Shown: piece by piece, positions 12,857 through 43,637 of the stretch | Layout: each line of letters begins with the position of its first letter | Numbering within the stretch: the stretch's first letter is position 1 | Origin: Flavobacteriales bacterium | Lineage (GTDB): Bacteria > Bacteroidota > Bacteroidia > Flavobacteriales_F > PHOS-HE28 | DNA length: 64,000 nt | NCBI GenBank assembly: GCA_016699575.1 | Contig: CP064979.1 | Coordinates: 400,824-464,823 of the forward strand | Reading direction: 5' to 3' | Program-made: the position numbers and the translations under genes | The notes under the pieces: model-generated | What the model was told of the DNA's origin: nothing | Databases searched by the model: none | The model's input: the letters and a program-made list of their open reading frames with translations, nothing else

Positions 12857-12861
12857 AGTGG

Positions 12862-19974: not shown

Positions 19975-19977
19975 GCC

Positions 19978-25735: not shown

Positions 25736-25882
25736 GCCTGCGACAGGCGTCTTCGCCATCAACACGAGCCTGTTCGCTTTACCGTTTTCCCCTTGCCTGA
25801 CGCGCCGGGGGGGGCGGGTAGCTTCGTCGCCATCAATGTACGCGCAGGTGCGCGTGCGCAGCGTCAACGAAACCAGCGGCCC

Positions 25883-27334
25883 ATGAGCAATCTCCTCGTC
25901 ATCGTCAATTTGATCGGCCTGTTCTTCATCGACCTTTTCATGCAGAGCGGCATCAACATCACCCACGACCTGCCCTCGACCATGCAGCCGGGCAGCCAGG
26001 TGAAGGTGACGATGAACGTGGAGAAAGGAGCCTTGGGCGGCTTCGCGAAACTGCAGATCGACCTGCCCGAAGGCATGACCGCGACGCTCGTCGACGGAAA
26101 AGGGGCTTCGTTCACCTTCGATGACCAGAAAGCCAAGTTCATCTGGATGAGCCTGCCCATGGCAGCTTCCTTCAGGGTCAGTTTCACGCTGACCGCTTCG
26201 GCCACAGTGAGCGGCAAAATGCCCATCAGCGGTCGCTTCAGCTACATCGAAGACAATGAGCGCAAGACACAGGAGCTGCCTCCCACGGTGGTCGACTTGG
26301 GCGGTGGATCCGCCGTAGCACAAGAAGCCCTTCCGCCGGTTGCCGCACCAGCCACGGAAGTGGTCGAACCAGTTGAGGAAACCGCATCGGCGGAGCCCGT
26401 GGACACGACGCCCATCGACGCCCCGGCCATAACCATCACCGATGCCCCGATGATCCCGGCCAGCCAGGGTGCCGGCAACGTGAGCGCCACGCGCACCATT
26501 ACAATGGTGAGCGAAACCGAACTGCTGGTGGAAGTGTTGGTCAACAAGGGAAGCATCCGTGGTTTCGGCAAACTGCAGGAGTCGCTTCCCGCAGGCTTCA
26601 CTGCCATGGAGAAGAACAACGCAGAAGCCATTTTCACCGCCCAGGACCGGATCGTGAAGTTCGTTTGGCTCAACCTGCCCGCGAGCAACGAAGTGAAGGT
26701 GACCTACAAGCTGCGCAGCAATGCGACCGTGCCCGGCGACCACCAAGTGAACGGGGAGTTCGGCTATCTGTTGAACGACGAAACCCAAAAAGCCACCCTG
26801 GGCAGCACGCGCTTTGCCATTGGTGCCGATGCATGGGCTGCTCATCAAGCCCAGTTGAAGGCGAAGGAACTGGAGGCCTTGGTCATCAACGCGAACTCGC
26901 AGGATGCCAGCGACACCGAGATGGACCGCACCGCGCAAGAAAGTGCTTCGCAGCCCGGTGAACCCAACAACAGCGCAGCGGCCACCAGGATGGAAGACCC
27001 CGTGGCACAACGTCCGGCCAGGCAGAACATCCCCGCTCCCGAGACGGGTATTACCTACAAAGTCCAGATCACTGCCGCGCACCGGGAGGTAGGCAGCGCG
27101 TATTTCGCCGGGCGCCACCGCTACAACGGGGACTTCGGCATTGAGCGCCACGAGGGCTGGATCAAGTACACGACAGGACGCCATGCCGAGTACCGTCAGG
27201 CCCGCGACCAGCGCCAAGCCTTCGTTTCCGCAGGGCACAACTTCCCCGGACCTTTCGTTACGGCCTACAACAACGGCGAGCGCATCACCGTGCAGGAAGC
27301 ACTGATGATCACCCGCCAGAACTGGGTGCAGTAA
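25883..27334 (+). CDS. membrane-anchored hypothetical protein with a C-terminal SPOR-like domain
   Basis: N-terminal TM helix MSNLLVIVNLIGLFFIDLF. An internal Pro/Ala/Thr-rich linker. The C-terminal roughly 80 aa begins YKVQITAAH..., similar to SPOR peptidoglycan-binding repeats. Confidence 0.45.
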   Translation: MSNLLVIVNLIGLFFIDLFMQSGINITHDLPSTMQPGSQVKVTMNVEKGALGGFAKLQIDLPEGMTATLVDGKGASFTFDDQKAKFIWMSLPMAASFRVSFTLTASATVSGKMPISGRFSYIEDNERKTQELPPTVVDLGGGSAVAQEALPPVAAPATEVVEPVEETASAEPVDTTPIDAPAITITDAPMIPASQGAGNVSATRTITMVSETELLVEVLVNKGSIRGFGKLQESLPAGFTAMEKNNAEAIFTAQDRIVKFVWLNLPASNEVKVTYKLRSNATVPGDHQVNGEFGYLLNDETQKATLGSTRFAIGADAWAAHQAQLKAKELEALVINANSQDASDTEMDRTAQESASQPGEPNNSAAATRMEDPVAQRPARQNIPAPETGITYKVQITAAHREVGSAYFAGRHRYNGDFGIERHEGWIKYTTGRHAEYRQARDQRQAFVSAGHNFPGPFVTAYNNGERITVQEALMITRQNWVQ

Positions 27335-27364
27335 CGGCTTCGGCCCGGCGGCTATATTTCGACC

Positions 27365-29416
27365 ATGCCGCCACGCCTACCCTTCCGCTCTCTTCTGTTG
27401 GCCGCGTGCGTTGCGATGGGCGCAACCACGGTGCACGCGCAGGAGGACACCACCGCTTCCTTCAAGTTCAGGCCCACGTTCAGTGTGGGGGCCGGGATGT
27501 TCTCCTTCTTCGGGGACATCGGGGGCAACCACGATGGCTACAGCCCATTGGTAACCCGTCTTGCGTATGAACTGCGAGCCAGCACGGCACTGACCCCTTG
27601 GCTTGAGGGCGGGTTGTTCGCTGTGCACGGCCGCCTCGGCGCCAACGAGCGCAGCCTTTCCCGGAACCTGAACTTCGAGAGCCGTGTGACCATGGGCGGC
27701 CTCATGCTCACGTACAACTTCAAACACCTGGTGAAGCCGACAGCCAAGGTGACGCCCTATCTGAGCGTAGGCTTCGAGAGCTTGGAATTCCTGAGCAAGA
27801 CCGATAGGATGGACCGCGAGGGCCGGGTGTACCACTACTGGAGCGATGGCACTATCCGCGACATCGACGAACAAGCCTCCAACGCTTCGGATGCCGTTGT
27901 GATCCAGCGCGACTACGACCATGAGAGCGATATCCGCGAACTTGACATGGACGGGTTCGGGCAGTACACCGAACGCACGTGGGCCGTTCCTGTTGGTTTC
28001 GGAGCGCGCATGGACCTTGGCTCGGGACTCGACCTCCGCTTGGGTGCACAGATCCATTGGACCTTCACCGACCTTATTGACGGTGTTACGGACGAGAGCG
28101 TGGAGGGCCGCACGGGCGACTCGCGCAACGACCGTATCCTCTACAGCAACTTCACCATCGGCTATGCCATACCGCTGGAGCGCAAGAAGCGCACGAGCAG
28201 CAAGGGCGGCATCGACATCTCGCCGGAGGACATGCAAGCGTTCGTTGCCGATGCGGACCAGGACGGCGATGGCGTGAACGATTTCAAGGACCTCTGCCCG
28301 GGCACGCCCGCTGGCACCAAGGTGGACCAGAACGGCTGCCCGCTCGATTCCGACCTGGACGGCGTGCCCGACCACCTCGATCTGGAAGCCGGCACCACCG
28401 CCGGTGCCCCGGTGGACGCGAACGGGGTGGCCATTACCGATGACGCCTTCCTGAAAAGCTGGCTGAACTTCAAAGACAGCGGCAACGTGAACATCGTGAC
28501 AAGCCGGGTGGAGAGCGTCGGCCCTCGCCGCAGCACCCCGCAGCCCAAGCAGCGCGTGTATGTGGTGCAGGTGGGCAGTGAAGTTGAAGGCATCACTGAA
28601 GCCCAAATGCAGCAACTGCTCAGCATCCCCGATCTGCGCACGGTGGAGCACGGCGATACCATCAGTTTCGTGGTGGGCGGCTACGATGCGCTGCCCGAGG
28701 CCATCCGCCGCCAGATGCAACTGAAGAACGCCGGAGTGAACGGCAAGGTGGTGGCGCAGGACGGCGATGCGCTGGTGAACATCGACGACCAGGTAGCAGC
28801 GGCCACGGCAGGTGTTGGATCGCCTGAGGCCACCACGTCCGGTCCTGCGATCGTACGCGTGCAGTTGGGCGCGTTCAAACAAAAGCTGAGCAAGGACATT
28901 TTCGCTGGCATCGAAGACCTGGTGGTGCTGAAAGGCGATGATGGATTGACGCGCTACTACACCGGAACATTCTCCGATGTGAACCCCGCCGCGGCGCTCA
29001 AAGTGGACATGCTGACGCGCGGGTTCGAGGGTGCTTTCCTCGTGGCGTTCAAGGACGGCAAGCGGGTCTCGTTGAAAGAGGCGGGGGCCAAGCTCACGGA
29101 ACCGGAAGACCTGTCGGCCATGCCCAAAGGAGCCATCAACAAGGAAATGCTGCGGTACCGTGTGCAGCTCGGCACATTCGCAGGCAACGTGCCCAGTGAT
29201 GTGATGAGCAAGTACATCGAGATGGGCAACGTGGAACCCGTGACAAGTCCGGACGCAGTGCGTTACTACTACGGCTCGTTCAAGTCGCGTGCGGAGGCCG
29301 ATGATGCGCTGAAAGCCATCAAGGAGAAAGGGCTTGCGGATGCGTTCCTGGTAGGCGCTGTTGGCAACCGACTGGTGAGCGCGGAGGACGTGGACCGGTT
29401 GTTCGCTGAGCCCTGA
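27365..29416 (+). CDS. outer-membrane protein with thrombospondin type-3 calcium-binding repeats and three C-terminal SPOR-like domains
   Basis: Signal peptide. N-terminal beta-barrel-like region. DADQDGDGVNDFKDLCPGTPAG...DSDLDGVPD TSP3 repeats. VRVQLGAFK..., YRVQLGTFAG..., YVVQVGSE... SPOR-type repeats. Confidence 0.6.
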   Translation: MPPRLPFRSLLLAACVAMGATTVHAQEDTTASFKFRPTFSVGAGMFSFFGDIGGNHDGYSPLVTRLAYELRASTALTPWLEGGLFAVHGRLGANERSLSRNLNFESRVTMGGLMLTYNFKHLVKPTAKVTPYLSVGFESLEFLSKTDRMDREGRVYHYWSDGTIRDIDEQASNASDAVVIQRDYDHESDIRELDMDGFGQYTERTWAVPVGFGARMDLGSGLDLRLGAQIHWTFTDLIDGVTDESVEGRTGDSRNDRILYSNFTIGYAIPLERKKRTSSKGGIDISPEDMQAFVADADQDGDGVNDFKDLCPGTPAGTKVDQNGCPLDSDLDGVPDHLDLEAGTTAGAPVDANGVAITDDAFLKSWLNFKDSGNVNIVTSRVESVGPRRSTPQPKQRVYVVQVGSEVEGITEAQMQQLLSIPDLRTVEHGDTISFVVGGYDALPEAIRRQMQLKNAGVNGKVVAQDGDALVNIDDQVAAATAGVGSPEATTSGPAIVRVQLGAFKQKLSKDIFAGIEDLVVLKGDDGLTRYYTGTFSDVNPAAALKVDMLTRGFEGAFLVAFKDGKRVSLKEAGAKLTEPEDLSAMPKGAINKEMLRYRVQLGTFAGNVPSDVMSKYIEMGNVEPVTSPDAVRYYYGSFKSRAEADDALKAIKEKGLADAFLVGAVGNRLVSAEDVDRLFAEP

Positions 29417-29430
29417 GGCGACCGCCTCAA

Positions 29431-29465
29431 CGAAGAAGGGCGGCCCATGGAGCCGCCCTTCTTCG
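29431..29465. terminator. bidirectional intrinsic terminator between convergent genes
   Basis: Perfect 13 bp stem CGAAGAAGGGCGG/CCGCCCTTCTTCG with an 8 nt loop. Confidence 0.6.
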
Positions 29466-29476
29466 TTCCGCGCATG

Positions 29477-31135
29477 CTAACGCTGGACCACTACAGGCTG
29501 GACGGCCTGAACGACCCCATCGCTCCGCAGTTCAACAAGGTAGGCTCCGTCGGCCAGGTCGCTCACATCAACGCTCACCGGCCCACGGGAAGACACGGCA
29601 CGAAGCTTCAGCAGGCGGCCCGACATGTCGATCAGACGGACCTCATCAAGCTCTACGACGCCTTGCACCGTGATGTTGATGAGATCGTGTGCCGGGTTGG
29701 GGTAGAGCAGAAAAAGCCCAGCTCCGGCATTCTCCTCCACACTGTAGATGCCGCACGGGTTGTAGGTCCCGTCCAAGGTGGTGGCGCCGCTGTTCGTGGG
29801 ATCGAGCCAAACGTGCAGTTCTTCGTTGGCCGGGTTGGGGTTCTGAGCACCCCAGTGATAGCTCATCTTGCCGAAATAGTCCTGCACCGTTGGGCCTGTG
29901 CCATTGCCACAACCGTTCACCGTGCAACAAGACCCGCCACCGGTGAGCGTGCCGACGATGCGGTGGTTCTGGTTGAAAATGGGTGATCCGCTGCTACCGC
30001 CCTCGGTTACGCCCCAACCGTTCGTTGTCGCCACCCAGGTCACCCGCCAATGTGCCCCGCTCGCGTTCCACCACGTACCACTGAGCAGATTGCTGGAATA
30101 GGTGCTGATCTTCTTCTCGTCACCGGCGGGATGGTGTACGCACACCCCGGCGGTGCTCGTGCCTCCGGACGCGTCCCACCCGTTGAAGTACGGAAAGAAG
30201 TTGGCGGGTACCTGGTTATTGGCTTCCACGAGAAGGAAATCACTGCCGTTCGTGGCCCCCCCACAGTTGCTGTCGGCGCGCCGGGCACAACCTGTCATCA
30301 CCTTGTTGGCCAGCGCAACCCCGGTTCCGCAGCCACTGCGTTGGTAGCGGAAGTAGAACTTGTAGTTGTTGAAGTTCGCATCTGTGCTGTTCAAGCCGCA
30401 GTGCAGCGCCGTTAGGAAAAATGGTTTGCAATCCAGAGCAGTGTTGTTGACCAGTGATCCGCTGCACCAGCCGAGACCACCGGGTTCCACAACGCTGATC
30501 CGCACAACACCGTCCCGCTCCTGTTCCCATGCATTGCCCTCGGGGCACTCCACATCCACTTCGCAAGCATCGGCCTTGGCCGCGCCAACGAACCTGTAGG
30601 CATGCCCAACGCCGGTGATCACGAAATGCCCCTGACCGGTCACAACAGCAGGCTCGTAGTACTCGACGATGGAGCGCGGCCCCATGATCTGCGCGGTGGT
30701 GAACTGCCCGCTCGAATGGTTGTTGTACGAGGTGAACCCGCCCAACAGCTCTTCCGTCGTGGGTGAGTAAACGTGCAAAACCGCTCCCGCGGGAAGCGCA
30801 AAATCCTCGAAGAAGAGTTCCGTGGCCAAGGCACCGGGGCTCTCAATGGCAGTTCGCCAAACGCGATCACCGTTGGGCAATGGGGTCCATTGGCCATCGG
30901 TCAGCGGGGCGATGGAAACCGGCAAGATCCGCCCGTAGAGCGGCAGACTTCCTTCCGCAGCGCGCTGGTCGTCTTCAATGGCTACTTGAGCGGCATCCAG
31001 CCCCACGGTGCCAAGAAGAGGCACATTGTTGAAGGACCAACCATGGCGCTTCGAAAATGGCGTTCCACCAACGCTCTCTTGGCCAATGGCCGCAGTAACC
31101 AAAACGACAAGGAGTACTGTAACAAGGCATCGCAT
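29477..31135 (-). CDS. S1-family (trypsin-like) serine endopeptidase with a T9SS C-terminal sorting domain
   Basis: Catalytic-triad contexts TALHCG (His) and GGSSGSPIF (Ser). C-terminal YPNPAHDLINITV...YLVELRSDGVVQAVQPVVVQR Por secretion tail. Signal peptide MRCLVTVLLVVLV (start is approximate). Confidence 0.7.
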   Translation of the reverse strand: MRCLVTVLLVVLVTAAIGQESVGGTPFSKRHGWSFNNVPLLGTVGLDAAQVAIEDDQRAAEGSLPLYGRILPVSIAPLTDGQWTPLPNGDRVWRTAIESPGALATELFFEDFALPAGAVLHVYSPTTEELLGGFTSYNNHSSGQFTTAQIMGPRSIVEYYEPAVVTGQGHFVITGVGHAYRFVGAAKADACEVDVECPEGNAWEQERDGVVRISVVEPGGLGWCSGSLVNNTALDCKPFFLTALHCGLNSTDANFNNYKFYFRYQRSGCGTGVALANKVMTGCARRADSNCGGATNGSDFLLVEANNQVPANFFPYFNGWDASGGTSTAGVCVHHPAGDEKKISTYSSNLLSGTWWNASGAHWRVTWVATTNGWGVTEGGSSGSPIFNQNHRIVGTLTGGGSCCTVNGCGNGTGPTVQDYFGKMSYHWGAQNPNPANEELHVWLDPTNSGATTLDGTYNPCGIYSVEENAGAGLFLLYPNPAHDLINITVQGVVELDEVRLIDMSGRLLKLRAVSSRGPVSVDVSDLADGAYLVELRSDGVVQAVQPVVVQR

Positions 31136-31182
31136 AGTGACCGGGGTTTGCATCGGCGCTAATGTAGAAGGGCTCAACATGG

Positions 31183-34100
31183 TTGTCAGGCGACCTGCGC
31201 GCCCTTTCTTCGCAGCCCATGCCCACCACGTCCTCCCGGCTCCACGCCGTGTTGCGCCGCTACCGTTGGTGGGTGTTCGTCCTTGCCATGGGTTGGACAG
31301 GGACGGCGGGGTGGATAGCCAGCAGCCTGAAGCTGGAGGAAGACCTCTTCCAAGCGCTGCCGCGGGACAAAACCATGGAGCGCTACCGGGCGCTGCTGGA
31401 GTCCTCGGGCAATGCCGATCGCATCGCCATCGGGTTCACCGCCGATTCGTTGCAGTTGGACAGCGCCTTCGCTGCAGCCGACCGATTTGAGGCATCTGTT
31501 TCGGATGCAGAACTGCCTGTGGTGGTCTCGTCCGGCCCGGACCTCGGCCAGGTGGATGCGCTCATCGACGGCCTACTGGCGCGCCTGCCCGCCATGGCGG
31601 ATAGTGCAGCTGTGGAGCGGTTCGCAGCCAGTGACAGCGCCGCCTTGAACGCCATCCTGGCGAAGGCATTGGAGCATCTCTCCTCCCCTTCCGGCATGCT
31701 TTCGGAACCGCTGGTCTTGGGCGACCCGGCCGGTCTGCTCGGAGAAAAGCTGAGCGTTCTCAAGAGCCTTGGTGGCATGGGCGGCCTCACCGTGGTCGAC
31801 GGCCGCTTCGTTGCGCGGGACAACCGCACGGTGTTCGTGCTGGTAGCACCGGACAGTGCTGTGCGGGGCACGCCTGCCGAACGCGCGCTCGTAAACACAC
31901 TCGATTCGTTGAGCGCCGCGGAAAAGGGAGCCACGCAGCCGAGCATGTTCGGAGCACTTCCGGTGAGCATGCGCAACGCAGAGCGCATTGCCGCCGATAG
32001 CCGCAGCACCACGCTCATCTCGCTGGTGCTGGCCCTGGTGCTCGTCGTCTGGTACTTCCGCAGGGCAACTGCGCCGTTGCTCATCCTGCTTCCACCTGCG
32101 TTCGGAGCGGTGAACGCGCTCGCAGGCATGGCGTTGATCCAGGGATCGGTGAGCGCCATCTCCTTGGGTGCCGGTGCGGCGCTGCTCGGAATCGCAATGG
32201 CCTACGGCTTCCACTTCCTGACGCACCTGCGGCACAACGGCAGCGTGGTTAAGGCACTGGAAGAAACGGCAGGTCCGCTCCTCCTCGGCTGCTTCACCAC
32301 CGTGCTGGCGTTCCTTGGCCTGCGCCTGCTCGACAGCCAGTTGCTGAAGGACCTCGGCCTGCTGAGCGCTCTGATGCTGGGGAGCACGGCGCTGTTCGTT
32401 CTGATCGTGCTGCCGTTGATGGTGAAGGACCGCCCGCCGATCCGGCCTAACGATCAACATGCAGCAACGAACAGTGCGTTCGCCAAGGTGCGCAAATGGG
32501 CCATCGTTCCCGTGCTCGTCATCACGGCCATCCTGCTGCCGTGGGCCGATGAAGCCACCTTCGATGATGAGCCTGAGCACCTGGGTTGGATGCCGCCGGA
32601 CATGCGCCGAGCGAACGACCTGCTCTTCGGGAGTGAGCGCGATACACGTACCGTGTTCATCGTTGCTGAAGGCGCCAACGAGGAAGAAGCACGGGCCGCG
32701 TTGGAGCGCGCCGGCAACGCACTGCGCAAGGGTTCACCGGCCATTGCCCAGAACCTCTTCCTCCCCACGGACCTGCAACCGTCCAACGCAACCGTGAAGA
32801 AGAAGCTGGACCACTGGATGTCCCGTTTCGGCAACGCACGCGGCTTGCCGTTGTCCAAACGATTGGAAGAGGCTGCGGAACGACAGGGCTTCACACCAGC
32901 GGCGTTCCATGGCTTTACGCACTGGCTGAACGGGATGCCCAACACCGCCGCCTTGTGGGAACCCATGCCGATCCCTGATGGCCTGCCCGGTGCGACCCCC
33001 GTCGTTGAGAAAGACGGTACCGCGCTGGTGAGCGGATTGCTGCGGTGCGGACCGAGAGAACTGGCCGAGGTGAACGCAACACTGGCTGCGCTCAACCGCA
33101 CGGGAACCGCCAAGGTTGAAGCACTGGACCGCAGCATCATGGGCGAGCGCATGAAGGCCATTGCCCAACGCGACCTTGGAAAAACACTGCTGTTCACCTC
33201 GGTGCTGGTGTTCATCACCTTGCTGATCTCATACGGGCGCATCGAACTCGCGCTCATCACCTTCCTGCCCATGGCCCTGGGCTGGGTATGGATCCTGGGC
33301 ATCTGCGGGCTCTTCGGCATCCCGTTCAACATGGTGAACATCCTGATCTGCACGTTCATCTTCGGGCTGGGCGACGACTACTGCATCTTCACCAGCGACG
33401 GTGTGCTGGAGCGCTACAAGACGGGCAAGGACCATACGCGCGCCAATCGCGATGCCGTCATCCTCACCGGCATCACCACCTTGCTCGGCACCGGCGCGTT
33501 GCTTTTCGCGGAGCACCCGGCCCTGCGTTCCATCGCCACGCTTTCCGTGGTTGGCATGCTCTGTATCCTGGTGATCGCGCTCACCGTGCAGCCGTGGCTA
33601 TACCGCACGTTCATCACCGGTCGCGCCGCGAAGGGCCGATACCCGTTCACTGCGAAGAGCCTGTTCGTTTCGGTGTTCGCCTTCCTCTACTTTCTGTTCG
33701 GCTGCATCCTGCTGGTGGGCCTGTTCCCGGTGCTGCGCATCATGCCGTTCAAATTGATGGCGAAGCGCAAGTTCTACGGTCGCATCATCATGCTCTTCAC
33801 CCGCAGCCTCGTTTACATCATGATGAACGTGAGGAAGGACATCCGTTCGTTCCGCGCGCAGGTGGAGGAACGGCCGAGCATCGTTGTTGCCAACCACGCG
33901 GGCTTCATCGACATCCTGGTGATGCTGATGGTGCACCCGCGCATGCTGATGATGACCAACCGCTGGGTGTGGAACTCGCCCTTCTTCGGTGCTGTGGTAC
34001 GCTTCATGGGCTTCCTGCGCAGCGAAGACACCACCGACGAGAACGTGAAGAACGCGGCCCAGGCCCTGAAGGACGGATTCTCCATCACCGTCTTCCCGGA

Positions 34101-35073
34101 GGGCACACGCAGCGTAACGGGCAAGCTCAACCGCTTCCACAAGGGTTCGTTCTGGCTGGCCGAGGAACTGCAGGCGCCGATGGTGCCCGTGGTTCTGCAC
34201 GGGGTGGGCCACGCGATGCAGAAAGGCGACTGGCTGCTGAAGGACGCCAGCATGGCCATGCGCGCACAGCCGACAATCGAGTGGAACGACGCGCGCTACG
34301 GCAAGGGCCACCGCGAGCGCACCAAGGCCATCAGCGCGGAGTTCAAGGCGGCGTACAACGAATTGCGGATCGAACGCGAAACGCCATGCTATTGGCGCGA
34401 GAAGCTCATCCGCACCTTCCTCTTCAAAGGCCCGGTGCTGGAATGGTACGTGCGCATCAAGAGCCGCATCGACACCGACCTGCACGAGCGGATCCACGCG
34501 CTGGTGCCGTGCGAGGCCAGCGTGGTGGACCTGGGCTGCGGATACGGCATGCTCGGCTACCTGCTGCACTGGAGCAGCGAAGACCGAAGGATCCTGGGCG
34601 TGGACCACGATGCTGCGAAAGTCGATGTGGCGCAGAACGGCTTCTCGCGTGGCGAAGCCCTGCAGTTCGTTCAAGCCGACCTGAGCTCGTTCATCCCACC
34701 GGCCGCTGATGCGTTCATCCTGAAGGACGTGCTCCACTACATGCCCAAGGAAGAACAGGCGGTTCTCCTGAAGCGGTGCAGCGGTGCACTGAACGCCGGC
34801 GGCATGATCCTCGTCCGCGACGGGTTCGCCGATGACGACAGCGCCCACGCCCGGACACGCACCACGGAACTCTTCTCCACACGACTGTTCGGCTTCAACA
34901 AAACGAAGGGGGCGCTGCATTTCCTTCGGCGCGCCGAACTGGAGACCATGGCCGCAGCGAACGGGCTTGTGTGCGAATGGACCGGTGACAGTGACGTGAC
35001 ATCCAACGAACTTGTGATCTTGCGACCCCATCCCCAACCCTTCCCCGGTGGAGAAGGGAGCTTGCGAACATGA
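31183..35073 (+). CDS. tripartite fusion protein: MMPL/RND-like exporter (two TM bundles) + lysophospholipid (PlsC-like) acyltransferase + class I SAM-dependent methyltransferase
   Basis: Residues about 1-800 carry two clusters of about 6 TM helices separated by large soluble loops (MMPL architecture). About 860-1050 carry the HX4D motif ANHAGFID and FPEGTRS. About 1110-1296 carry methyltransferase motif I VVDLGCGYGMLG. It is one uninterrupted 1296-codon frame. Confidence 0.7.
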   Translation: MSGDLRALSSQPMPTTSSRLHAVLRRYRWWVFVLAMGWTGTAGWIASSLKLEEDLFQALPRDKTMERYRALLESSGNADRIAIGFTADSLQLDSAFAAADRFEASVSDAELPVVVSSGPDLGQVDALIDGLLARLPAMADSAAVERFAASDSAALNAILAKALEHLSSPSGMLSEPLVLGDPAGLLGEKLSVLKSLGGMGGLTVVDGRFVARDNRTVFVLVAPDSAVRGTPAERALVNTLDSLSAAEKGATQPSMFGALPVSMRNAERIAADSRSTTLISLVLALVLVVWYFRRATAPLLILLPPAFGAVNALAGMALIQGSVSAISLGAGAALLGIAMAYGFHFLTHLRHNGSVVKALEETAGPLLLGCFTTVLAFLGLRLLDSQLLKDLGLLSALMLGSTALFVLIVLPLMVKDRPPIRPNDQHAATNSAFAKVRKWAIVPVLVITAILLPWADEATFDDEPEHLGWMPPDMRRANDLLFGSERDTRTVFIVAEGANEEEARAALERAGNALRKGSPAIAQNLFLPTDLQPSNATVKKKLDHWMSRFGNARGLPLSKRLEEAAERQGFTPAAFHGFTHWLNGMPNTAALWEPMPIPDGLPGATPVVEKDGTALVSGLLRCGPRELAEVNATLAALNRTGTAKVEALDRSIMGERMKAIAQRDLGKTLLFTSVLVFITLLISYGRIELALITFLPMALGWVWILGICGLFGIPFNMVNILICTFIFGLGDDYCIFTSDGVLERYKTGKDHTRANRDAVILTGITTLLGTGALLFAEHPALRSIATLSVVGMLCILVIALTVQPWLYRTFITGRAAKGRYPFTAKSLFVSVFAFLYFLFGCILLVGLFPVLRIMPFKLMAKRKFYGRIIMLFTRSLVYIMMNVRKDIRSFRAQVEERPSIVVANHAGFIDILVMLMVHPRMLMMTNRWVWNSPFFGAVVRFMGFLRSEDTTDENVKNAAQALKDGFSITVFPEGTRSVTGKLNRFHKGSFWLAEELQAPMVPVVLHGVGHAMQKGDWLLKDASMAMRAQPTIEWNDARYGKGHRERTKAISAEFKAAYNELRIERETPCYWREKLIRTFLFKGPVLEWYVRIKSRIDTDLHERIHALVPCEASVVDLGCGYGMLGYLLHWSSEDRRILGVDHDAAKVDVAQNGFSRGEALQFVQADLSSFIPPAADAFILKDVLHYMPKEEQAVLLKRCSGALNAGGMILVRDGFADDDSAHARTRTTELFSTRLFGFNKTKGALHFLRRAELETMAAANGLVCEWTGDSDVTSNELVILRPHPQPFPGGEGSLRT

Positions 35074-36590
35074 ACGATCGGAAATTCGATGTGGTAGTGA
35101 TAGGCGCAGGCCTTGGCGGACTGGAGGTGGCCTACACCCTGGCCAACGAGGGCATGAGCGTGTGCGTGCTGGAGAAGAACCAGCAGTTAGGCGGCAGCCT
35201 TCAGGTCTTCAGCCGCGAGAAGACCATCTTCGATACGGGCGTGCATTACATCGGTGGCCTGCTGCCCGGCCAGAACCTGCACCGCTACCTCAGCTTCTTC
35301 GGCATCATGGACAAGCTGAAGCTGCAGCGGATGGACATGGACGGGTACGACCTGTGCAGCATGGAGGGCGACCCCAACGAGTACCCGCACGCGCAGGGCT
35401 ACGACAACTTCATCCGCCGCTTGGTGGAGTACTTCCCGGCCGAGAAAGCCGGTATCACGCGCTACACCGAGGAGATCAAACGGATGTGCGGCAAGTTCCC
35501 GCTGTACAACCTGGAGGACACCGACACGCAGGAATGGAAGGATGATGATCTGGGGCTGAACGCGAAGGACTTCATCGCCACCATGGTGAAGGACCCCACG
35601 TTGCGCAACGTGCTGGGCGGCAGCAGCGCGCTCTATGCCGGCGACGGCCGCTACTCACCGTTCTACGTGCATGCCCTGGTGACGAACACGTATATCGAAA
35701 GCTCGTGGCGTTGCATTGACGGGGGCTCGCAGATCGCCAAGCACCTCACGCACAATGCGCGGGAGAAAGGTGCCACGGTGATCGCGCGCAAAGAGGTTTG
35801 CGGCTTCGACTTCCACGGCAACGACATCAGTGCGGTGCGTACCACCGATGGCGATGTGTTCGAGTGCAAGCAGGTCATCGCGAACATCCATCCGGCCACC
35901 CTACTGGGCATGATCGGCCCGGGCCACATCCGGCCGGCCTACCGCAACCGCCTCACATCATTGCGCAACACACCGGGCAGCTTCACGGTTCACGCCGTGA
36001 TGAAGCCCGGCACCTTCCCCTACCTCAACCACAACTACTACCACATGATCGGCACCGACGTGTGGGATGCGGTGCGTTACGATCGGGTGAACTACCCCAA
36101 CAGCTACATGCTGAGCACGCCCAAGAGCACGCGCGGCGGCGACCATGCCGATGCCATCACCATCATGTGCTACATGGACTACGATGAGGTGGCGCAGTGG
36201 GCTGACAGCCACAACACCATCGTGCGGCCCGGCAAGCGCGGCGATGACTACGAGGCGTTCAAGCGGAAGAAGGAGGAACAGGTGCTGAACGTGGTGGAGC
36301 GCAAATTCCCCGGCATCAAGAGCTGCATCCAGAGCGTGCACAGCAACACGCCCCTCTCCTTCCGCGATTTCATCGGCAGCCCCGACGGCAACATGTACGG
36401 CATCATGAAGGACCACAGCGACCCGCTGCGCACCTTCATCCCGCCGCGCACCAAGATCCCGAACCTCCTGCTCACCGGCCAGAACATAAACCTGCACGGC
36501 ATCCTGGGCGTTACCGTGAGCAGCATCGTCACCGCCAGCGAACTGGTGGGCAAAAGCCACCTGCTGAAGAAAGTACGCGCGGCGAGCTGA
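35070..36590 (+). CDS. NAD(P)/FAD-dependent oxidoreductase, phytoene desaturase (CrtI) family
   Basis: VVVIGAGLGGLEVAYTLANEGMSVCVLE dinucleotide-binding fold. The start overlaps the fusion-protein stop (ATGA). Paralog of the gene at 623-2323. Confidence 0.78.
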   Translation: MNDRKFDVVVIGAGLGGLEVAYTLANEGMSVCVLEKNQQLGGSLQVFSREKTIFDTGVHYIGGLLPGQNLHRYLSFFGIMDKLKLQRMDMDGYDLCSMEGDPNEYPHAQGYDNFIRRLVEYFPAEKAGITRYTEEIKRMCGKFPLYNLEDTDTQEWKDDDLGLNAKDFIATMVKDPTLRNVLGGSSALYAGDGRYSPFYVHALVTNTYIESSWRCIDGGSQIAKHLTHNAREKGATVIARKEVCGFDFHGNDISAVRTTDGDVFECKQVIANIHPATLLGMIGPGHIRPAYRNRLTSLRNTPGSFTVHAVMKPGTFPYLNHNYYHMIGTDVWDAVRYDRVNYPNSYMLSTPKSTRGGDHADAITIMCYMDYDEVAQWADSHNTIVRPGKRGDDYEAFKRKKEEQVLNVVERKFPGIKSCIQSVHSNTPLSFRDFIGSPDGNMYGIMKDHSDPLRTFIPPRTKIPNLLLTGQNINLHGILGVTVSSIVTASELVGKSHLLKKVRAAS

Positions 36591-36593
36591 GCG

Positions 36594-37511
36594 TTACTCC
36601 ACGATGGGGATCAGGCCCCGCACACCCATATCGGTGACCACATCGAAGGCGGGCGCACCGGGCTCGTACAGGCCATCGCCGTTGTCCTGCCACTCGAAGC
36701 TGTTGTTGGTGGAGAGGGAAACCGTGATGACCACGTCCTGCGTCTCAGCTCCGGTGATGACGAGCGGTTGCGCGAATTCCCCGGTGACCACGCACGAGCC
36801 CGCCGGGATCGGTGACGTGGAGGCCAAAGGATTCGGGACGGTGGTGGCACCTGCTGGTGCTTGACCGGTCACGGGGGCGGTGGGCACGATCGGATCGATG
36901 ACCTCGAACGCCCAGAATCCCTGCAGCCTGTCGTCGTTCACCGTTACGGACTGCTGGTGCACCACGAATGAACTGATGTAGGTGTTGTAACCGATGAACG
37001 AAGCCACGGTGCCTTCCAGGTCGTAAGTGCCCGTGCCGAACTGGGTGTCGGTGTAACGGAAGTCGATGTCGTAGTTCTGGTAGGCCAAGGACACGCGCAG
37101 CCATTCGTAGGTGCCAGCATCCAGATCGCTCAACGGCACGCTCAGGAACACCTCTCCGTCGCCCGCCTTCACGCTCTGGTTGAAGTCAATGGCGGTGGCG
37201 CCGCCAGCGCTGGTCTCGGCTGCGTGGTAAACAACAGCACCACTGCCCAAGGCCGTCCAAGCGGTCGGAGCGAACTCGACATAGTGCGCGCTCATCTTGT
37301 TGAAGCGGGGGTTTTGTGCAGCATGGCCCGCCGGAATGGTGCTGGTTTGCCCGAGGTTGTCCAAGCGCACCTGGGTGCTATCGAACTTGAACTTCAGCAC
37401 GAGGTTGGGGCCGCTTGGGCCTGGCGACGGCGCAGGTGCGGGGTCCTCCTCCTTCTTGCAGGAGGTAAGCACGGCCGCTACAGCGAGGGCGGCGAGAAGG
37501 GCAGTACGCAT
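36594..37511 (-). CDS. lipoprotein, hypothetical
   Basis: MRTALLAALAVAAVLTSC lipobox, then a Pro/Ala-rich linker. The longer ORF start at 37802 would run through the MarR promoter region. Confidence 0.5.
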   Translation of the reverse strand: MRTALLAALAVAAVLTSCKKEEDPAPAPSPGPSGPNLVLKFKFDSTQVRLDNLGQTSTIPAGHAAQNPRFNKMSAHYVEFAPTAWTALGSGAVVYHAAETSAGGATAIDFNQSVKAGDGEVFLSVPLSDLDAGTYEWLRVSLAYQNYDIDFRYTDTQFGTGTYDLEGTVASFIGYNTYISSFVVHQQSVTVNDDRLQGFWAFEVIDPIVPTAPVTGQAPAGATTVPNPLASTSPIPAGSCVVTGEFAQPLVITGAETQDVVITVSLSTNNSFEWQDNGDGLYEPGAPAFDVVTDMGVRGLIPIVE

Positions 37512-37572
37512 GGTAGGTGGAAGTCTGGTCCGCAAAGAACGCATGAGCCCTTGAAGAAATTTCCCACCATAG

Positions 37573-37584
37573 TATGCATGCATA
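37573..37584. promoter_or_regulatory. palindromic operator candidate TATGCATGCATA upstream of the MarR gene
   Basis: Perfect 12 bp palindrome 46 bp upstream of the MarR start codon. A near-identical TTATGCGTGCATAA lies upstream of the acyl-CoA dehydrogenase gene at 53373. Confidence 0.5.
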
Positions 37585-37618
37585 ACAAATGCGGATACCT
37601 TGGGGGCCAAGTCAACCG

Positions 37619-38053
37619 GGGATGAAGCCTGAAGAGACGATCGACTTTCCGATCCGCCGTGTGTGGAGCCGGATTTCACGCATCTACAACACCGAGGCGG
37701 CCAAGTACGGTGGCAGCATGGCCGTGGGCCAGATCCTGCTGAACATCGAGCCGGAGGGCACGCCCAGCACCAAGCTTGGTCCCAAGATGGGCATGGAGGC
37801 ACGCAGCCTTGTGCGCACGTTGCAGGCCATGGAGGACGAAGGATTGATCAAGCGCATCGCCGACAAGAGCGACAAGCGCGTGGTGCGCATCCACCTCACT
37901 GCGAAGGGCAAGCAGATGCGCGACGTGAGCCGCAACACCGTGATCAGATTCAACGAGGCGGTGCAGAGCCGTTTCACGACGGCGCAACTGAACAACTTCC
38001 GGCAGGTGATGTCGGAACTGGACCATATTCTCGAACACGAACAACTTTTCTGA
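37619..38053 (+). CDS. MarR family transcriptional regulator
   Basis: Winged-HTH pattern typical of MarR (...MAVGQILLNIEP...LVRTLQAMEDEGLIKRIADKSDKRVVRIHLTAKGK). Confidence 0.8.
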   Translation, partial: GMKPEETIDFPIRRVWSRISRIYNTEAAKYGGSMAVGQILLNIEPEGTPSTKLGPKMGMEARSLVRTLQAMEDEGLIKRIADKSDKRVVRIHLTAKGKQMRDVSRNTVIRFNEAVQSRFTTAQLNNFRQVMSELDHILEHEQLF

Positions 38054-38165: not shown

Positions 38166-40544
38166 ATGAGCAAACGAAACATCCGCAAAGTCGCCGTGCT
38201 CGGCAGCGGCGTCATGGGCAGCCGCATTGCCTGCCACTTCGCGAACACCGGCACCGAAGTGCTGCTGCTCGACATTCCAGCCAAGGAAGGTCCGCGCAAC
38301 AAGATCGTGGACGACGCACTCGCCGCCGCGATCAAGAGCAGTCCGGCGCCCCTGTACGATGCACGCTTCGCCAAGCGCATCAGCACCGGCAACTTCGACG
38401 ACGACCTGCCCAAGATCAAGGACTGCGACTGGATCATCGAGGTCGTGATCGAGCGGCTCGACATCAAGCAGCAACTGCTGGAGAAGGTGGAGAAGCACCG
38501 TACACCGGGCACGCTCATCACCACCAACACCAGCGGCATCCCGATCCACGCCATCAGCGCGGGCCGAAGCGACGACTTCCGCAGGCACTTCTGCGGCACG
38601 CACTTCTTCAACCCGCCGCGCTACCTGCCGCTGCTGGAGCTGATCCCCGGTCCGGACACCGACCCCGCGGTGCTCGCCTTCCTGGAGGACTACGGCCAGC
38701 GCATCCTTGGCAAGGTCACGGTGATGGCCAAGGACACGCCCGCCTTCGTGGCCAACCGCATCGGCGTGTTCGGCATCATGGACGTGTTCCACCTCGTCAC
38801 CGACATGGGCCTTACGGTGGAGGAAGTGGACCGCCTCACCGGCCCCGTGATCGGCCACCCGAAGAGCGCCACCTTCCGCACCGCCGACGTGGTGGGCCTC
38901 GACACGCTGGTGAAAGTCGCGCAGGGCGTGAAGGACAACTGCCCGCACGACGAGCGCAACAGCCTCTTCAGCATTCCGGAGTACCTGCAGCAGATGGTGG
39001 AGAAGAACATGCTCGGCAGCAAGACCGGCAAGGGCTTCTTCTTCAAGGACCGCAACTCACCCAAGGGCGAGATCCTCTCCCTCGACCTGAAGACGCTGGA
39101 GTACAAGCCACAGGTGAAGCCCAAGTTCGCCACGCTGGACGCGGCGAAAAAGGTGGATGACCTGCGCGAGCGCCTCAAACTGGTGTACAACGGCACCGAC
39201 AAGGCCGGCGAATTCTACCGCCGTTCGTTCCAGGCGATGTTCGCATACGTGAGCCACCGCATCCCCGAGATCAGCGACGAGCTGTACAAGATCGACGACG
39301 GCATGCGCGCCGGCTTCGGCTGGGAGGCGGGTCCGTTCGAGACCTGGGACGCCATCGGAGTGCAACAAGTGAAAGATGAAATAGGAAAGCTGAAAGCTGA
39401 AAGTGGAAATGCGCTGACCATCGCGCCATGGGTGGATGAGATGCTTGCGGCTGGTCATACTTCGTTCTACAAAGTGGAGCAGGGCCAACGCCTTTACTAC
39501 GATGTCGCGAGCAAGAGCTACAAGCCGGTGCCACGCGCGGAAGGCTTGATCGTTCTCAACGAATTGCCAGAAAGCAGCATCGTGTGGAAGAACAGCGCCG
39601 CCACCGTGCGTCACCTCAGCGATGGCATCCTGAGCGTGAGCTGGACGAGCAAGATGAACACCATCGGCGCGGAGGTGATCCAGGGCCTCAACAAAGCCAT
39701 CGACCTCGCCGAGCAGGGCTACAAAGGCCTGGTGGTCTACAACGACGGCGCCAACTTCAGCGCGGGCGCCAACGTGGGCATGATCTTCATGATGGCCGTG
39801 GAGCAGGAGTACGACGACCTGGAGATGGCCGTGCGCACCTTCCAGAACACCATGATGCGCATGCGCTACAGCAGCATCCCCGTGGTGGCGGCCCCGCACC
39901 AACTGTGCCTGGGCGGCGGCACCGAGCTCTGCCTGCACGCGGACAAGGTGGTGGCGCACGCCGAGACCTACATGGGCCTGGTGGAATTCGGCGTGGGCGT
40001 GATCCCCGGCGGCGGCGGCACCAAGGAATTCGCCCTGCGCCTCGCCGACGAGCTGAAGGAGGGCGACATCCGCATCAACGCCATGCGCGAGCGCTTCCTC
40101 ACCATCGGCCAGGCCAAGGTGGCCACCAGCGGGCACGAGGCTTTCACGTTAGGCTACTTGCGTCGCGGCCAGGACGAGGTCATTGTCAGCCGCGCCCACC
40201 AGCTGGCCTACGCCAAGGCCTGCGCGCTGGAGCTGTGGAACAAGGGCTACACCAAGCCCGCACCGCGTAAGGACATCAAGGTGCTCGGCCAGGAAGGCCT
40301 CGGCATCGTGTACGTGGGCGCCAACAGCATGCTCAGCGGCAACTACATCAGCCAGCACGATGCGCTGATCAGCGAGAAGCTGGGCTATGTGCTATGCGGG
40401 GGTGACCTGAGCGAGGCTACGGAGGTCTCCGAGCAATACCTGCTGGACCTGGAGCGGAAAGCCTTCGTGGAGCTGTGTATGCAGCGGAAGACGCTCGAGA
40501 GACTTCAGTCGATCATTACTACGGGGAAAGTGTTGCGGAATTGA
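38166..40544 (+). CDS. fadB: bifunctional 3-hydroxyacyl-CoA dehydrogenase / enoyl-CoA hydratase (HCDH N-terminal, ECH C-terminal)
   Basis: N-terminal KVAVLGSGVMGSRIA Rossmann motif and HFFNPP. C-terminal crotonase fold VAAPHQLCLGGGTELCLHAD. About 792 aa. Confidence 0.9.
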   Translation: MSKRNIRKVAVLGSGVMGSRIACHFANTGTEVLLLDIPAKEGPRNKIVDDALAAAIKSSPAPLYDARFAKRISTGNFDDDLPKIKDCDWIIEVVIERLDIKQQLLEKVEKHRTPGTLITTNTSGIPIHAISAGRSDDFRRHFCGTHFFNPPRYLPLLELIPGPDTDPAVLAFLEDYGQRILGKVTVMAKDTPAFVANRIGVFGIMDVFHLVTDMGLTVEEVDRLTGPVIGHPKSATFRTADVVGLDTLVKVAQGVKDNCPHDERNSLFSIPEYLQQMVEKNMLGSKTGKGFFFKDRNSPKGEILSLDLKTLEYKPQVKPKFATLDAAKKVDDLRERLKLVYNGTDKAGEFYRRSFQAMFAYVSHRIPEISDELYKIDDGMRAGFGWEAGPFETWDAIGVQQVKDEIGKLKAESGNALTIAPWVDEMLAAGHTSFYKVEQGQRLYYDVASKSYKPVPRAEGLIVLNELPESSIVWKNSAATVRHLSDGILSVSWTSKMNTIGAEVIQGLNKAIDLAEQGYKGLVVYNDGANFSAGANVGMIFMMAVEQEYDDLEMAVRTFQNTMMRMRYSSIPVVAAPHQLCLGGGTELCLHADKVVAHAETYMGLVEFGVGVIPGGGGTKEFALRLADELKEGDIRINAMRERFLTIGQAKVATSGHEAFTLGYLRRGQDEVIVSRAHQLAYAKACALELWNKGYTKPAPRKDIKVLGQEGLGIVYVGANSMLSGNYISQHDALISEKLGYVLCGGDLSEATEVSEQYLLDLERKAFVELCMQRKTLERLQSIITTGKVLRN

Positions 40545-40600
40545 ACCGACAAAACGACGATCCCGTGTCACACGCGTTCAGCTATAAGCTCGCCAAGATG

Positions 40601-41059
40601 AAAGGTGGTCTTGGTCACTATGGTGAGATCACAGTGGTGGTTGAAGCTAGACTTGCGGATGAGCCGACTATTGTAGAGGCATACAGCGGAACAGGATGGG
40701 AAAGGCAAGGATATGCGCACACTATACCGGACAAGGGTTTCGATGATTGGAAATCGGCGATCCGAATGGGCATCGAATATGCTCTTCGTCGCTTGGAGGA
40801 ACAGAGCATCCGCGTTACAGTGAAAGAAGCCACTGGCTTGATCACTGACACGAACGCGACAATACTTGCCTATGCAGCGTCAAGAGCCCTCTTGGAGAAT
40901 CTTCCCAACCTGGAATCTCAGACGGAAAAGGACCGATTCGAGCAGCTTGTTTTCAGCAGTTTCAACTATGAAGACAGCGCCCAATTGGACCTGGAGCAGT
41001 TCCAGTTAATAGGCCAACTCAGGCCGAAGTCACCATATAGGGTTCAGGCAAATGGCTAA
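40601..41059 (+). CDS. hypothetical protein (island gene A)
   Basis: 152 aa from the MKGGLGHYGE Met. Local GC is about 50% against a host figure above 60%. No motif recognised. An alternative start at 40475 would overlap fadB. Confidence 0.4.
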   Translation, partial: KGGLGHYGEITVVVEARLADEPTIVEAYSGTGWERQGYAHTIPDKGFDDWKSAIRMGIEYALRRLEEQSIRVTVKEATGLITDTNATILAYAASRALLENLPNLESQTEKDRFEQLVFSSFNYEDSAQLDLEQFQLIGQLRPKSPYRVQANG

Positions 41060-41086
41060 GCATAGCCAGCAATATCATCTCATCGG

Positions 41087-41235
41087 TTGGGGCGTGCCGG
41101 CTCGCCCTTCGGCTCCGCAGAGCCGCGCTCAGGGTCTCGCCGTCGCGCTTGGAGTTCAGCCCGGGCTCGGACCCGGGCCTACAAGTCCTCGCGCGGATTA
41201 CCGCGCTGTGGGCTTTCCGCTGCAATCGCTCACGC
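41087..41235. repeat. intergenic repeat element, copy A (TTGGGGCGTGCC...hairpin...CGCGGATTACCGCG...GGCTTTCCGCTG)
   Basis: Shares a 12-mer and a roughly 60 nt 3' module with copy B at 46639-46740. The ATTA-loop hairpin shows compensatory changes between the two copies. Confidence 0.55.
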
Positions 41236-41239
41236 ATGA

Positions 41240-43444: not shown

Positions 43445-43450
43445 GACCCC

Positions 43451-43618: not shown

Positions 43619-43637
43619 CTTTCAGCACGAAACTACA

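Follow-up and report, generated by a model that had tools for sequence, protein, structure and literature searches.

A fused exporter–acyltransferase–methyltransferase gene and its neighbour in a Flavobacteriales bacterium are probably the flxU/flxV pair of a flexirubin-type pigment cluster

Organization of the locus

The window, a 64-kb stretch of DNA from an uncultured Flavobacteriales bacterium, carries a long three-domain gene followed directly by an oxidoreductase gene. The features considered here are as follows.

29477..31153, − strand: T9SS-secreted trypsin-like protease (Por_Secre_tail above the Pfam cut-off, Trypsin_2 below it), the flank that the inversion moved beside flxU
31154..31218, unstranded: 65-bp intergenic region with the inversion junction; similarity to L001, a relative with the flxA–flxU type of arrangement, starts at 31205 (alignments)
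31219..35073, + strand: flxU homologue, 1,284 aa, RND/MMPL exporter plus PlsC-type acyltransferase plus class I SAM methyltransferase (Pfam, start in L005, identity to QQR87008.1, relatives)
31219..33612, + strand: RND/MMPL exporter part, 12 predicted TM helices, two periplasmic loops, conserved GLGDDY in TM10 (Pfam, PDB matches, hydropathy)
33643..34272, + strand: hydrophobic two-helix anchor and PlsC/LPLAT acyltransferase domain with HAGFID and FPEGT (Pfam, 5KYM, ApeD match, AlphaFold)
34366..35013, + strand: three-helix linker/cap and class I SAM methyltransferase domain with VDLGCGYG (Pfam, invariant motif columns, Foldseek)
35070..36590, + strand: flxV homologue, FAD-dependent CrtI-superfamily oxidoreductase (Pfam, NCBIfam, ATGA overlap, structure matches)
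36594..37523, − strand: hypothetical protein, 309 aa, a neighbour conserved in L001
37622..38053, + strand: MarR-family regulator, likewise conserved in L001

The flxU reading frame (31183..35073, + strand) is real and uninterrupted and, as originally predicted, counts 1,296 codons; its first codon is a TTG. The start is likely to be ATG 31219, giving 1,284 residues, and this same start was called independently on Logan contig L005. GenBank protein QQR87008.1 is 100% identical to the window protein across 1,284 aa, and an independent 12.2-kb assembly of the locus is 100% identical to the window. FlxU relatives are encoded by more than 591 species genomes; in 80 species genomes (tblastn, GTDB species representatives) they match over their full length at 31–76% identity. 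All 80 species loci examined, type strains included, hold the gene as one frame with the same domain order (this count, and those of flxV and KS neighbours below, come from the best 80 of the more than 591 genomes). Chitinophaga, Dyadobacter, Crocinitomix and Wandonia have matches that are collinear along the full length, and all three Pfam domains (MMPL, acyltransferase and methyltransferase) were found in the same order in four cultured strains or isolates of Bacteroidota. An artefactual fusion, in which a sequencing frameshift or misassembly joined two or three genes, is rejected on the identical assembly, the identical GenBank protein and the 80 single-frame loci; nothing in its favour emerged, and we give it practically no weight.

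Domains of the fusion protein

A single polypeptide thus runs from an MMPL/RND exporter through a PlsC-type acyltransferase to a class I methyltransferase, each of the three predicted domain assignments scoring above its Pfam gathering threshold. Hydropathy shows the 12 TM segments typical of RND proteins and, after them, a PlsC-type hydrophobic anchor. The MMPL model (PF03176) matches in two stretches at 50.6 bits (gathering cut-off 20.5), the GLGDDY motif at 716 falls in TM10 (1,284-aa numbering), and the GDD, Y and H columns of the exporter alignment are invariant. These features agree with an MMPL/HAE3-like (APPE-type) layout of the RND superfamily, defined by 12 TM helices arranged as two 1+5 repeats, a pair of large periplasmic loops and a charged/Tyr relay in TM4 and TM10. 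PDB sequence matches of the exporter are MmpL4 and HpnN. Scores against the NCBIfam HAE3, HpnN and BstA models are far below every cut-off, which places the FlxU exporter, by profile, outside all three subfamilies. Its similarity to E. coli ApeM is weak, at 20% identity over 484 aa, yet collinear (pairwise E = 3e-6).

The acyltransferase model (PF01553) scores 67.5 bits (gathering cut-off 23) at residues 895–1005 of the 1,296-aa ORF. Both family motifs are intact, the HX4D motif as HAGFID at 893 and the FPEGT motif at 959 (1,284-aa numbering). Thermotoga PlsC (5KYM) matches FlxU residues 823–1018, anchor helices included, with E = 2e-12. A model of the acyltransferase–methyltransferase half (AlphaFold, pLDDT 79.5) confirms both folds; its acyltransferase part has helices at 13–42 and 47–68 and then an α/β domain, consistent with the N-terminal membrane-embedded helix pair of LPLAT/PlsC enzymes. 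The domain is 28% identical to E. coli ApeD (E = 4e-13) and is the sole ApeD match in the flexirubin-type loci tested.

Four methyltransferase models score above their gathering cut-offs, Methyltransf_25 (39.6 bits), Methyltransf_2 (33.2), Methyltransf_11 (32.5) and Methyltransf_12 (32), spanning residues ~1102–1263 (1,296-aa ORF numbering); for Methyltransf_23 and Methyltransf_31, FlxU lies below the cut-offs. The VDLGCGYG sequence at 1103 is intact and G1108, G1110 and D1131 are invariant (1,284-aa numbering), supplying the GxGxG motif I and the acidic residue ending strand 2 of class I SAM-dependent enzymes. Foldseek, run with the acyltransferase–methyltransferase model, returned DnrK-type aromatic-polyketide O-methyltransferases as best matches (E = 2e-12), with DnrK, CalO1 and Plu4895 at E of about 1e-11 to 1e-12. 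As these neighbours are solely generic small-molecule methyltransferases, the fold does not assign a substrate.

Equating this domain with ApeB, the aryl head-group methyltransferase, proved wrong. BLASTP gave no significant alignment between the two, and the FlxU domain does not combine ApeB similarity with the Dimerisation2-like plus Methyltransf_2 arrangement of an ApeB orthologue. A separate 347-aa gene, 49% identical to ApeB, is present in the L003, L006 and Chitinophaga loci. As a minor new point, the ApeB equivalent is this separate gene and not the FlxU domain. An unrelated KS/radical-SAM lipid cluster also encodes an MMPL protein fused to a FlxU-type methyltransferase domain, including the helical extension at the domain’s N terminus.

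The flxV start codon overlaps the flxU stop codon as ATGA (35070–35073), in keeping with the predicted translational coupling, and flxV lies directly 3′ of flxU in 64 of 71 species loci. Its product carries the FAD motif VIGAGLGG and scores 70.3 bits against Amino_oxidase (cut-off 19.8), bearing out a CrtI-superfamily oxidoreductase. Scores against the NCBIfam CrtI, CrtD and CrtISO models reach 74–98 bits versus cut-offs of 238–587 (crtI_fam, TIGR02734, 74.2 versus 238.1; CrtD, 98 versus 549.7), putting FlxV in the superfamily but, by these scores, outside the three families proper. FlxV is 98.8% identical to the L001 copy. With dN/dS against L001 of 0.019 for flxV and 0.10 for flxU, both genes are under purifying selection.

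Identity with FlxU and FlxV

The fused gene and the one next to it very probably correspond to flxU and flxV, a pair described before from the gene cluster for flexirubin (aryl-polyene) pigments in Bacteroidota, and the arrangement is hence a known one. The original prediction had linked the locus to aryl-polyene and flexirubin pigment clusters, which this pair bears out; it had also taken the three functions to be separate genes in flexirubin-type clusters, where the fusion (FlxU) is in fact the norm, and had not recognized an arrangement that is already on record. A 2014 study noted FlxU with acyl- and methyltransferase domains plus an exporter, and listed Chitinophaga pinensis flxV (Cpin_1874) as a reductase. 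The NCBI names of U (Fjoh_1078) and V (Fjoh_1077) are given in PMC12968099, with FlxU named ‘trifunctional ...’. Fjoh_1078 lies within the fragment Fjoh_1078-1089, which complemented a flexirubin-negative mutant. Across residues ~1–1270, FlxU is 33–36% identical (tblastn) to proteins of Chitinophaga spp., among them one from a C. pinensis-labelled MAG, a similarity measured on these homologues rather than on reference Cpin_1873 or Fjoh_1078 themselves.

Our scan of the NCBIfam library found no dedicated ‘trifunctional’ model, all FlxU matches being far under cut-off, so the NCBI name must derive from a domain-architecture rule. In GenBank, the product of the window gene is labelled simply ‘1-acyl-sn-glycerol-3-phosphate acyltransferase’.

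Separation from the polyketide core

The window lacks KS, ACP, DH and ammonia-lyase genes throughout its 64 kb (0 of 13 L001 core proteins match, tblastn), extending what had been noticed close to the pair for the first three. Among ~40 window ORFs scanned with Pfam were housekeeping genes, a polysaccharide locus, genes of fatty-acid oxidation and a toxin–antitoxin island. In relatives at 90%, 76% and 49% identity, flxU stands back-to-back with core genes: tyrosine ammonia-lyase, KR, KS, ACP, LpxL-like acyltransferase, ApeP-like DH, 4HBT, KS, ACP, KS and CLF. In 47 of 55 species loci, KS genes are located no more than 10 kb from flxU.

The window genes 5′ of flxU showed no synteny with the flxU loci of relatives, and we therefore tested for an inversion. 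In relatives, the protease gene directly follows a gene for a PKD/CHU_C protein, and all four junction types were found: flxA–flxU in L001, L003 and L006; PKD-CHU_C–protease in L089–L091; protease–flxU in the window and L005; and PKD-CHU_C–flxA in L086 and L087, where the whole core comes next. By these alignments one inversion split the cluster, with one end between flxA and flxU and the other between the genes for the PKD protein and the T9SS protease, and the pair looks isolated only because it was thereby moved from the rest of the cluster. Sequence beyond ~15–45 bp upstream of flxU was removed, so expression of flxU may have changed. A shared 8-bp inverted motif (TATCTTCG / CGAAGATA) was considered as the crossover site and rejected, as L087–L001 similarity runs past it.

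Core genes elsewhere in the genome, which it had been proposed to look for, are represented by QQR87229.1, an intact flexirubin-type ammonia-lyase of 504 aa that is 97.4% identical to that of L001. It probably shares one chromosome with QQR87008.1, partly on the strength of neighbouring accession numbers; its surroundings are represented here by the closest relatives, L086 and L087. The core (ammonia-lyase, KS/CLF, ACP, KR and DH), absent from the window and present in sister genomes, would be retained in the window’s own genome, as QQR87229.1 and the inversion junctions suggest.

Alternative explanations

This history bears on the suggestion that the pair is a stand-alone module, acylating, methylating and exporting some other lipid or pigment independently of a polyketide core. 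The empty 64-kb window invites that view, and so do some 8 of 55 species loci in which no KS gene is found within 10 kb of flxU. The core nevertheless directly adjoins flxU in close relatives, one inversion, with the full core at its other end, accounts for the isolation, and the intact ammonia-lyase is probably on the same chromosome; we regard a stand-alone module as very unlikely. We hold it equally improbable that the locus is a decaying remnant, with the pathway lost or broken by rearrangement and flxU and flxV becoming pseudogenes. The cluster is physically split and the original sequence upstream of flxU has been replaced, but both frames are intact with all catalytic motifs, dN/dS is low (0.10 and 0.02) over a dS of 0.3–0.6, and the ammonia-lyase is undamaged. 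The protease–flxU junction also appears to occur in several diverged strains (FlxU 89–90% identical), and would hence have been maintained.

Slightly less probable still is a carotenoid system, in which the CrtI-family enzyme modifies a carotenoid that the fusion protein esterifies, methylates and exports. CrtD and carotenoid isomerase are the best sub-threshold family matches of FlxV, CrtD and CrtI are its nearest solved structures, and the window has a second CrtI-superfamily gene at 623–2323. Against this, every CrtI, CrtD and CrtISO score is far under its curated cut-off, and across Bacteroidota the flxU–flxV pair is accompanied by type II PKS and ammonia-lyase genes rather than by crtB, crtY or crtZ; a non-exhaustive scan of window ORFs found no phytoene synthase or cyclase domain.

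Proposed role in the pathway

The best explanation, and in our judgement a strongly favoured one, is therefore the flxU–flxV pair of a flexirubin-type aryl-polyene pigment/lipid cluster. FlxU would combine in one protein the late membrane steps of the pathway as they occur in Bacteroidota. The ApeD-counterpart acyltransferase domain, anchored by its two helices to the inner membrane at the cytoplasmic side, most likely takes a polyene or fatty acyl chain from ACP or CoA and attaches it to an acceptor of the lyso-lipid type; the methyltransferase domain would methylate the pigment or its carrier. The ApeM-counterpart RND/MMPL domain most likely draws the finished lipid from the inner membrane using the proton gradient, and would hand it to the cluster’s LolA-like carrier for transfer to the outer membrane. 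FlxV, translationally coupled to FlxU, is most likely a reductase, desaturase or isomerase acting on the polyene chain. Substrates, step order and export route are extrapolated from the ape system in Xenorhabdus and E. coli, using the literature roles of ApeD, ApeM and ApeL.

With the ring-methyltransferase role belonging to the separate ApeB-like gene, the FlxU domain may not be the ring methyltransferase. Tentatively, and with the odds against it, the exporter-tethered domain could be a distinct family that methylates the polyene lipid or its anchor during export, an undescribed reaction. Were export-time methylation true, flexirubin-type clusters would make a larger lipid conjugate, comparable to Xenorhabdus APE lipids.

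The significance of the locus goes little beyond correct annotation: the gene product is best annotated as a FlxU-type trifunctional protein belonging to a flexirubin-type pigment cluster, and the organism is best scored, on genomic grounds, as a probable flexirubin-type pigment producer despite its two-piece cluster. For genome mining, the locus is an example of how a rearrangement can hide the export/tailoring half of an aryl-polyene cluster from tools that call cluster boundaries. The FlxU/FlxV family is still worth experiments on the late assembly steps, for which this window gives no special handle.

Comparison with known systems

Of the known systems, FlxU/FlxV of C. pinensis (Cpin_1873/1874) and Flavobacterium johnsoniae (Fjoh_1078/1077) share the three-domain order at ~1,250–1,290 aa, with a CrtI-superfamily flxV directly 3′ of flxU as in the window, and the cluster partners in the window’s sister genomes are those of the known pair. 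The window pair differs in being split from flxA-flxT by inversion, in lacking 3′ of it the flxW, flxY and ApeB-like methyltransferase genes that L003 and L006 have there, and in its high sequence divergence from the named reference proteins.

HpnN/MmpL-type exporters resemble FlxU in their 12-TM RND layout, two periplasmic domains and Asp/Tyr motif in TM10, their lipid substrates parallel the proposed role, and in mycobacterial MmpL systems synthesis is coupled to export; FlxU carries a fused acyltransferase and methyltransferase, whereas they carry neither. ApeB is, like the FlxU domain, a SAM-dependent class I methyltransferase encoded in aryl-polyene clusters.

In the ape cluster (E. coli CFT073 and Xenorhabdus doucetiae), ApeD matches the FlxU acyltransferase domain and ApeM the RND part. 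Ape and flexirubin-type loci have in common a LolA-like carrier, GT2, an LpxL-like acyltransferase, a 4HBT thioesterase, ApeI/ApeP dehydratases and KS/CLF/ACP. Only the proteobacterial ape clusters keep ApeM and ApeD as separate genes, with no methyltransferase attached, and they have no CrtI-like gene, whereas the flexirubin-type pair includes flxV. ApeJ is one protein in ape clusters and two genes in flexirubin-type loci, and the starter unit is 4-hydroxybenzoate in the former versus tyrosine-derived coumarate in the latter.

Architecture of FlxU and FlxV

The two genes overlap by four nucleotides (ATGA).

31183–35073, + strand: flxU, 1296 uninterrupted codons from TTG
35070–36590, + strand: flxV, FAD-binding Amino_oxidase/CrtI-superfamily protein, its ATG overlapping the flxU TGA

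The original prediction of an uninterrupted three-domain fusion, translationally coupled to a CrtI-family neighbour, is borne out by this frame and overlap and by domain searches, in which all three functions score above Pfam gathering thresholds: MMPL in two stretches over roughly the first 800 aa, Acyltransferase PF01553 at 67.5 bits and, at the C terminus, a number of class I methyltransferase models. The start is likely the ATG at 31219 (product 1284 aa), called likewise on the independent Logan contig L005. Hydropathy follows a 12-TM RND pattern with two large loops, then a 40-residue hydrophobic stretch. Thermotoga PlsC (5KYM) aligns with both this stretch and the domain after it (E 2e-12), its pair of membrane-embedded N-terminal helices included, which places the acyltransferase on the cytoplasmic membrane face. 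The motifs HAGFID, FPEGT, VDLGCGYG and GLGDDY (the last in TM10) are all present, and are invariant in an alignment of 17 sequences with identity down to 25%.

The flxV product falls far below the curated CrtI, CrtD and carotenoid-isomerase cut-offs. Members of the CrtI superfamily take polyene chains as substrates, for desaturation, isomerisation or saturation. Schöner et al. proposed that FlxV is a reductase. The window holds a second superfamily member, only 24% identical to FlxV, followed by an uncharacterised 331-aa ORF and then one whose match to AurF-like di-iron proteins is weak (window 623–4191).

623–2323: second CrtI-superfamily gene, 566 aa, best match carotenoid isomerase (146 bits against a cut-off of 587)

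Distribution of the fusion in Bacteroidota

Schöner et al. (2014) described the flexirubin cluster flxA–flxY of Chitinophaga pinensis and its Flavobacterium johnsoniae counterpart, and NCBI product names for the same flx genes are reproduced in a 2026 taxonomic paper (PMC12968099). Scanning one genome per GTDB species, we found FlxU relatives in more than 591 genomes (a lower bound) and studied the best 80 loci, which include Chitinophaga, Dyadobacter, Crocinitomix catalasitica, Wandonia haliotis, Owenweeksia, Chryseolinea and Sporocytophaga. In all 80 the alignment covers query residues ~1–1270. Among them, a flxV homologue lies directly 3' of flxU in 64 of the 71 loci with sufficient flank, and ketosynthase genes lie within 10 kb in 47/55; four cultured strains or isolates each showed the MMPL, acyltransferase and methyltransferase Pfam domains.

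An artefactual fusion is poorly supported. L005 (12.2 kb) is 100% identical to window 25478–37708, disposing of the frameshift concern, and QQR87008.1, from a 'Flavobacteriales bacterium' MAG in GenBank, is 100% identical to the 1284-aa protein. The frame is also single and unbroken in 80/80 best loci, three apparent stops being extreme ends of BLAST segments. Given this single frame, the flxV pairing, the proximity of ketosynthases and the domains in cultured strains, the fusion is the ordinary, already annotated state in Bacteroidota.

A probable inversion between flxU and the polyketide core

None of the 13 core proteins of L001, a relative's locus, matches the 64-kb window (0/13), in line with the originally noted absence of KS, ACP and dehydratase genes nearby; the remainder of the window comprises housekeeping, polysaccharide and fatty-acid oxidation genes. 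In L001, L006 and L003, whose FlxU proteins are 90%, 76% and 49% identical to the window's, flxU lies back-to-back with the tyrosine ammonia-lyase gene flxA. After flxA come KR, KS, ACP, an LpxL-like acyltransferase, an ApeP-like dehydratase, a 4HBT thioesterase, KS, ACP, KS, CLF and a polysaccharide deacetylase.

At the nucleotide level the window and L001 become similar at window 31205, 14 bp 5' of the flxU ATG, and stay so across flxV and three further genes (hypothetical, MarR and fadB-like). Upstream of flxU the window, unlike L001, carries a gene for a T9SS-secreted trypsin-like protease. A search with the L001 ammonia-lyase found close relatives (97–98% identical) on contigs L086 and L087. 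There a PKD/CHU_C protein gene, and not flxU, stands ahead of the complete core, which runs from flxA to LolA, an ApeI-like dehydratase and GT2/DUF2062. The window protease in turn led to L089, L090 and L091, where the PKD/CHU_C gene is followed directly by the protease gene and an OMP/SPOR gene. Both ancestral junctions (flxA–flxU and PKD–protease, present in more distant relatives too) and both derived ones (protease–flxU and PKD–flxA) are found. Together the four are exactly what a single inversion, broken in intergenic DNA at each end, would leave. Several further strains seem to have the protease–flxU junction as well, the contigs with their FlxU and those with their protease being identical in length.

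The 8-mer T[AT]TCTTCG precedes the flxU, flxA and protease start codons by 6–35 nt, and similarity between the window and L001 starts exactly at this motif. It may be the Bacteroidota −7 promoter box.

Sites of T[AT]TCTTCG
Window: 31205–31212
L001: ~10025
L087: ~9960
L089: ~9985

Looking for the flexirubin core elsewhere in the genome, as the original prediction proposed, identified QQR87229.1, a flexirubin-type ammonia-lyase of 504 aa that is intact and shares 97.4% identity with its L001 counterpart. Its contig is as long (4,479,215 bp) as the one with QQR87008.1, apparently in one and the same GenBank genome. The accessions are 221 numbers apart, from which we infer that ammonia-lyase and flxU are ~220 genes apart. 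Both flxU and flxV are kept under purifying selection, since dN/dS between the window and L001 is 0.10 for flxU (0.02–0.14 by domain, the poorly conserved first 40 residues excepted) and 0.019 for flxV.

These data bear on two readings of the isolated pair. A stand-alone module working without a polyketide core, as originally entertained, has the 0/13 result in its favour but is poorly supported: the core adjoins flxU in relatives, a single inversion accounts for the isolation, and the ammonia-lyase is intact. That intact enzyme, together with the selection on both genes, also speaks against a decaying remnant of a broken pathway, likewise poorly supported. The earlier interpretation thus has partial support: it stands in its link to aryl-polyene and flexirubin pigment clusters, and falls in its stand-alone module and in its view that flexirubin-type clusters encode the three functions separately. 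Apart from the inversion splitting the cluster, nothing local is peculiar about flxU–flxV, a pair that is already known and widespread.

Elsewhere in the window, the fadB-like gene (38166–39758 against L001 16998–18575) has a dN/dS of 0.25, the highest of five syntenic genes (others 0.02–0.10). Beyond this gene lies what looks like a small island set within a fadB–fadA pair.

12244–21057: polysaccharide biosynthesis/export locus (asparagine-synthase-like protein, GT4 glycosyltransferase, Wza-like, Wzc-like, RmlC, WecA-like transferase)
38166–40544: fadB-like gene
~40500–45450: GC down to 0.546, several ORFs without family matches and an AbiEii toxin gene (44371–45444)
45441–46616: thiolase gene

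The FlxU methyltransferase domain

An AlphaFold model of residues 800–1284 (pLDDT 79.5) runs from two long helices through an alpha/beta acyltransferase domain and a three-helix connector to a Rossmann methyltransferase domain. The nearest solved folds are small-molecule O-methyltransferases of DnrK, CalO1 and Plu4895 type, and these neighbours suggest that the substrate may be a small aromatic or polyketide.

A fused ApeB equivalent is ruled out: the domain has no detectable similarity to ApeB, and L003, L006 and Chitinophaga loci have, next to flxV, a distinct 347-aa gene with 49% identity to ApeB (E 2e-123). The ApeB equivalent is a separate gene in both lineages, 44–49% identical across phyla. 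On these comparisons the FlxU methyltransferase is an additional enzyme, a small new point.

A related domain, 29% identical over 137 aa including the helical N-terminal extension, occurs in P0019, whose cluster differs from flx (KS genes, ACP, ApeI-like dehydratase, 4HBT, PS-DH and three radical-SAM genes).

L092/L093 10001–13144: P0019, 1047-aa MMPL protein fused to a FlxU-related methyltransferase, without acyltransferase

The ~1150-aa FlxU relatives P0015–P0018 have MMPL and acyltransferase domains (P0016–P0018 by Pfam listing). In P0015, whose sequence we read, the methyltransferase is cut down to a short stub that stops just past motif I, either a real truncation or a contig end.

Comparison with the aryl-polyene system

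We compared the flexirubin-type loci with the ape cluster of E. coli CFT073 (L088). The FlxU acyltransferase domain is the only ApeD homologue in the loci tested (28% identity, E 4e-13), and ApeM gives a weak but collinear alignment to the RND part (20% identity over 484 aa). In Xenorhabdus, ApeD is proposed to put a conjugated fatty acyl chain on a lysophosphatidylglycerol and ApeJ to add sugar and aryl polyene, the lipid then being carried to the outer membrane by ApeM with the LolA/LolB-like ApeL and ApeN. E. coli genetics agree, unattached intermediates building up in apeD and apeJ mutants. By analogy, FlxU would be a single protein doing both the acylation at the membrane and the extraction and export. 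Fusion patterns are opposite between the two lineages (L001, L003, L006, L013, L024 and L087 against E. coli): ApeM and ApeD are separate in E. coli and fused in FlxU, whereas ApeJ joins GT2 and an LpxL-like acyltransferase that are two separate genes in flexirubin-type clusters.
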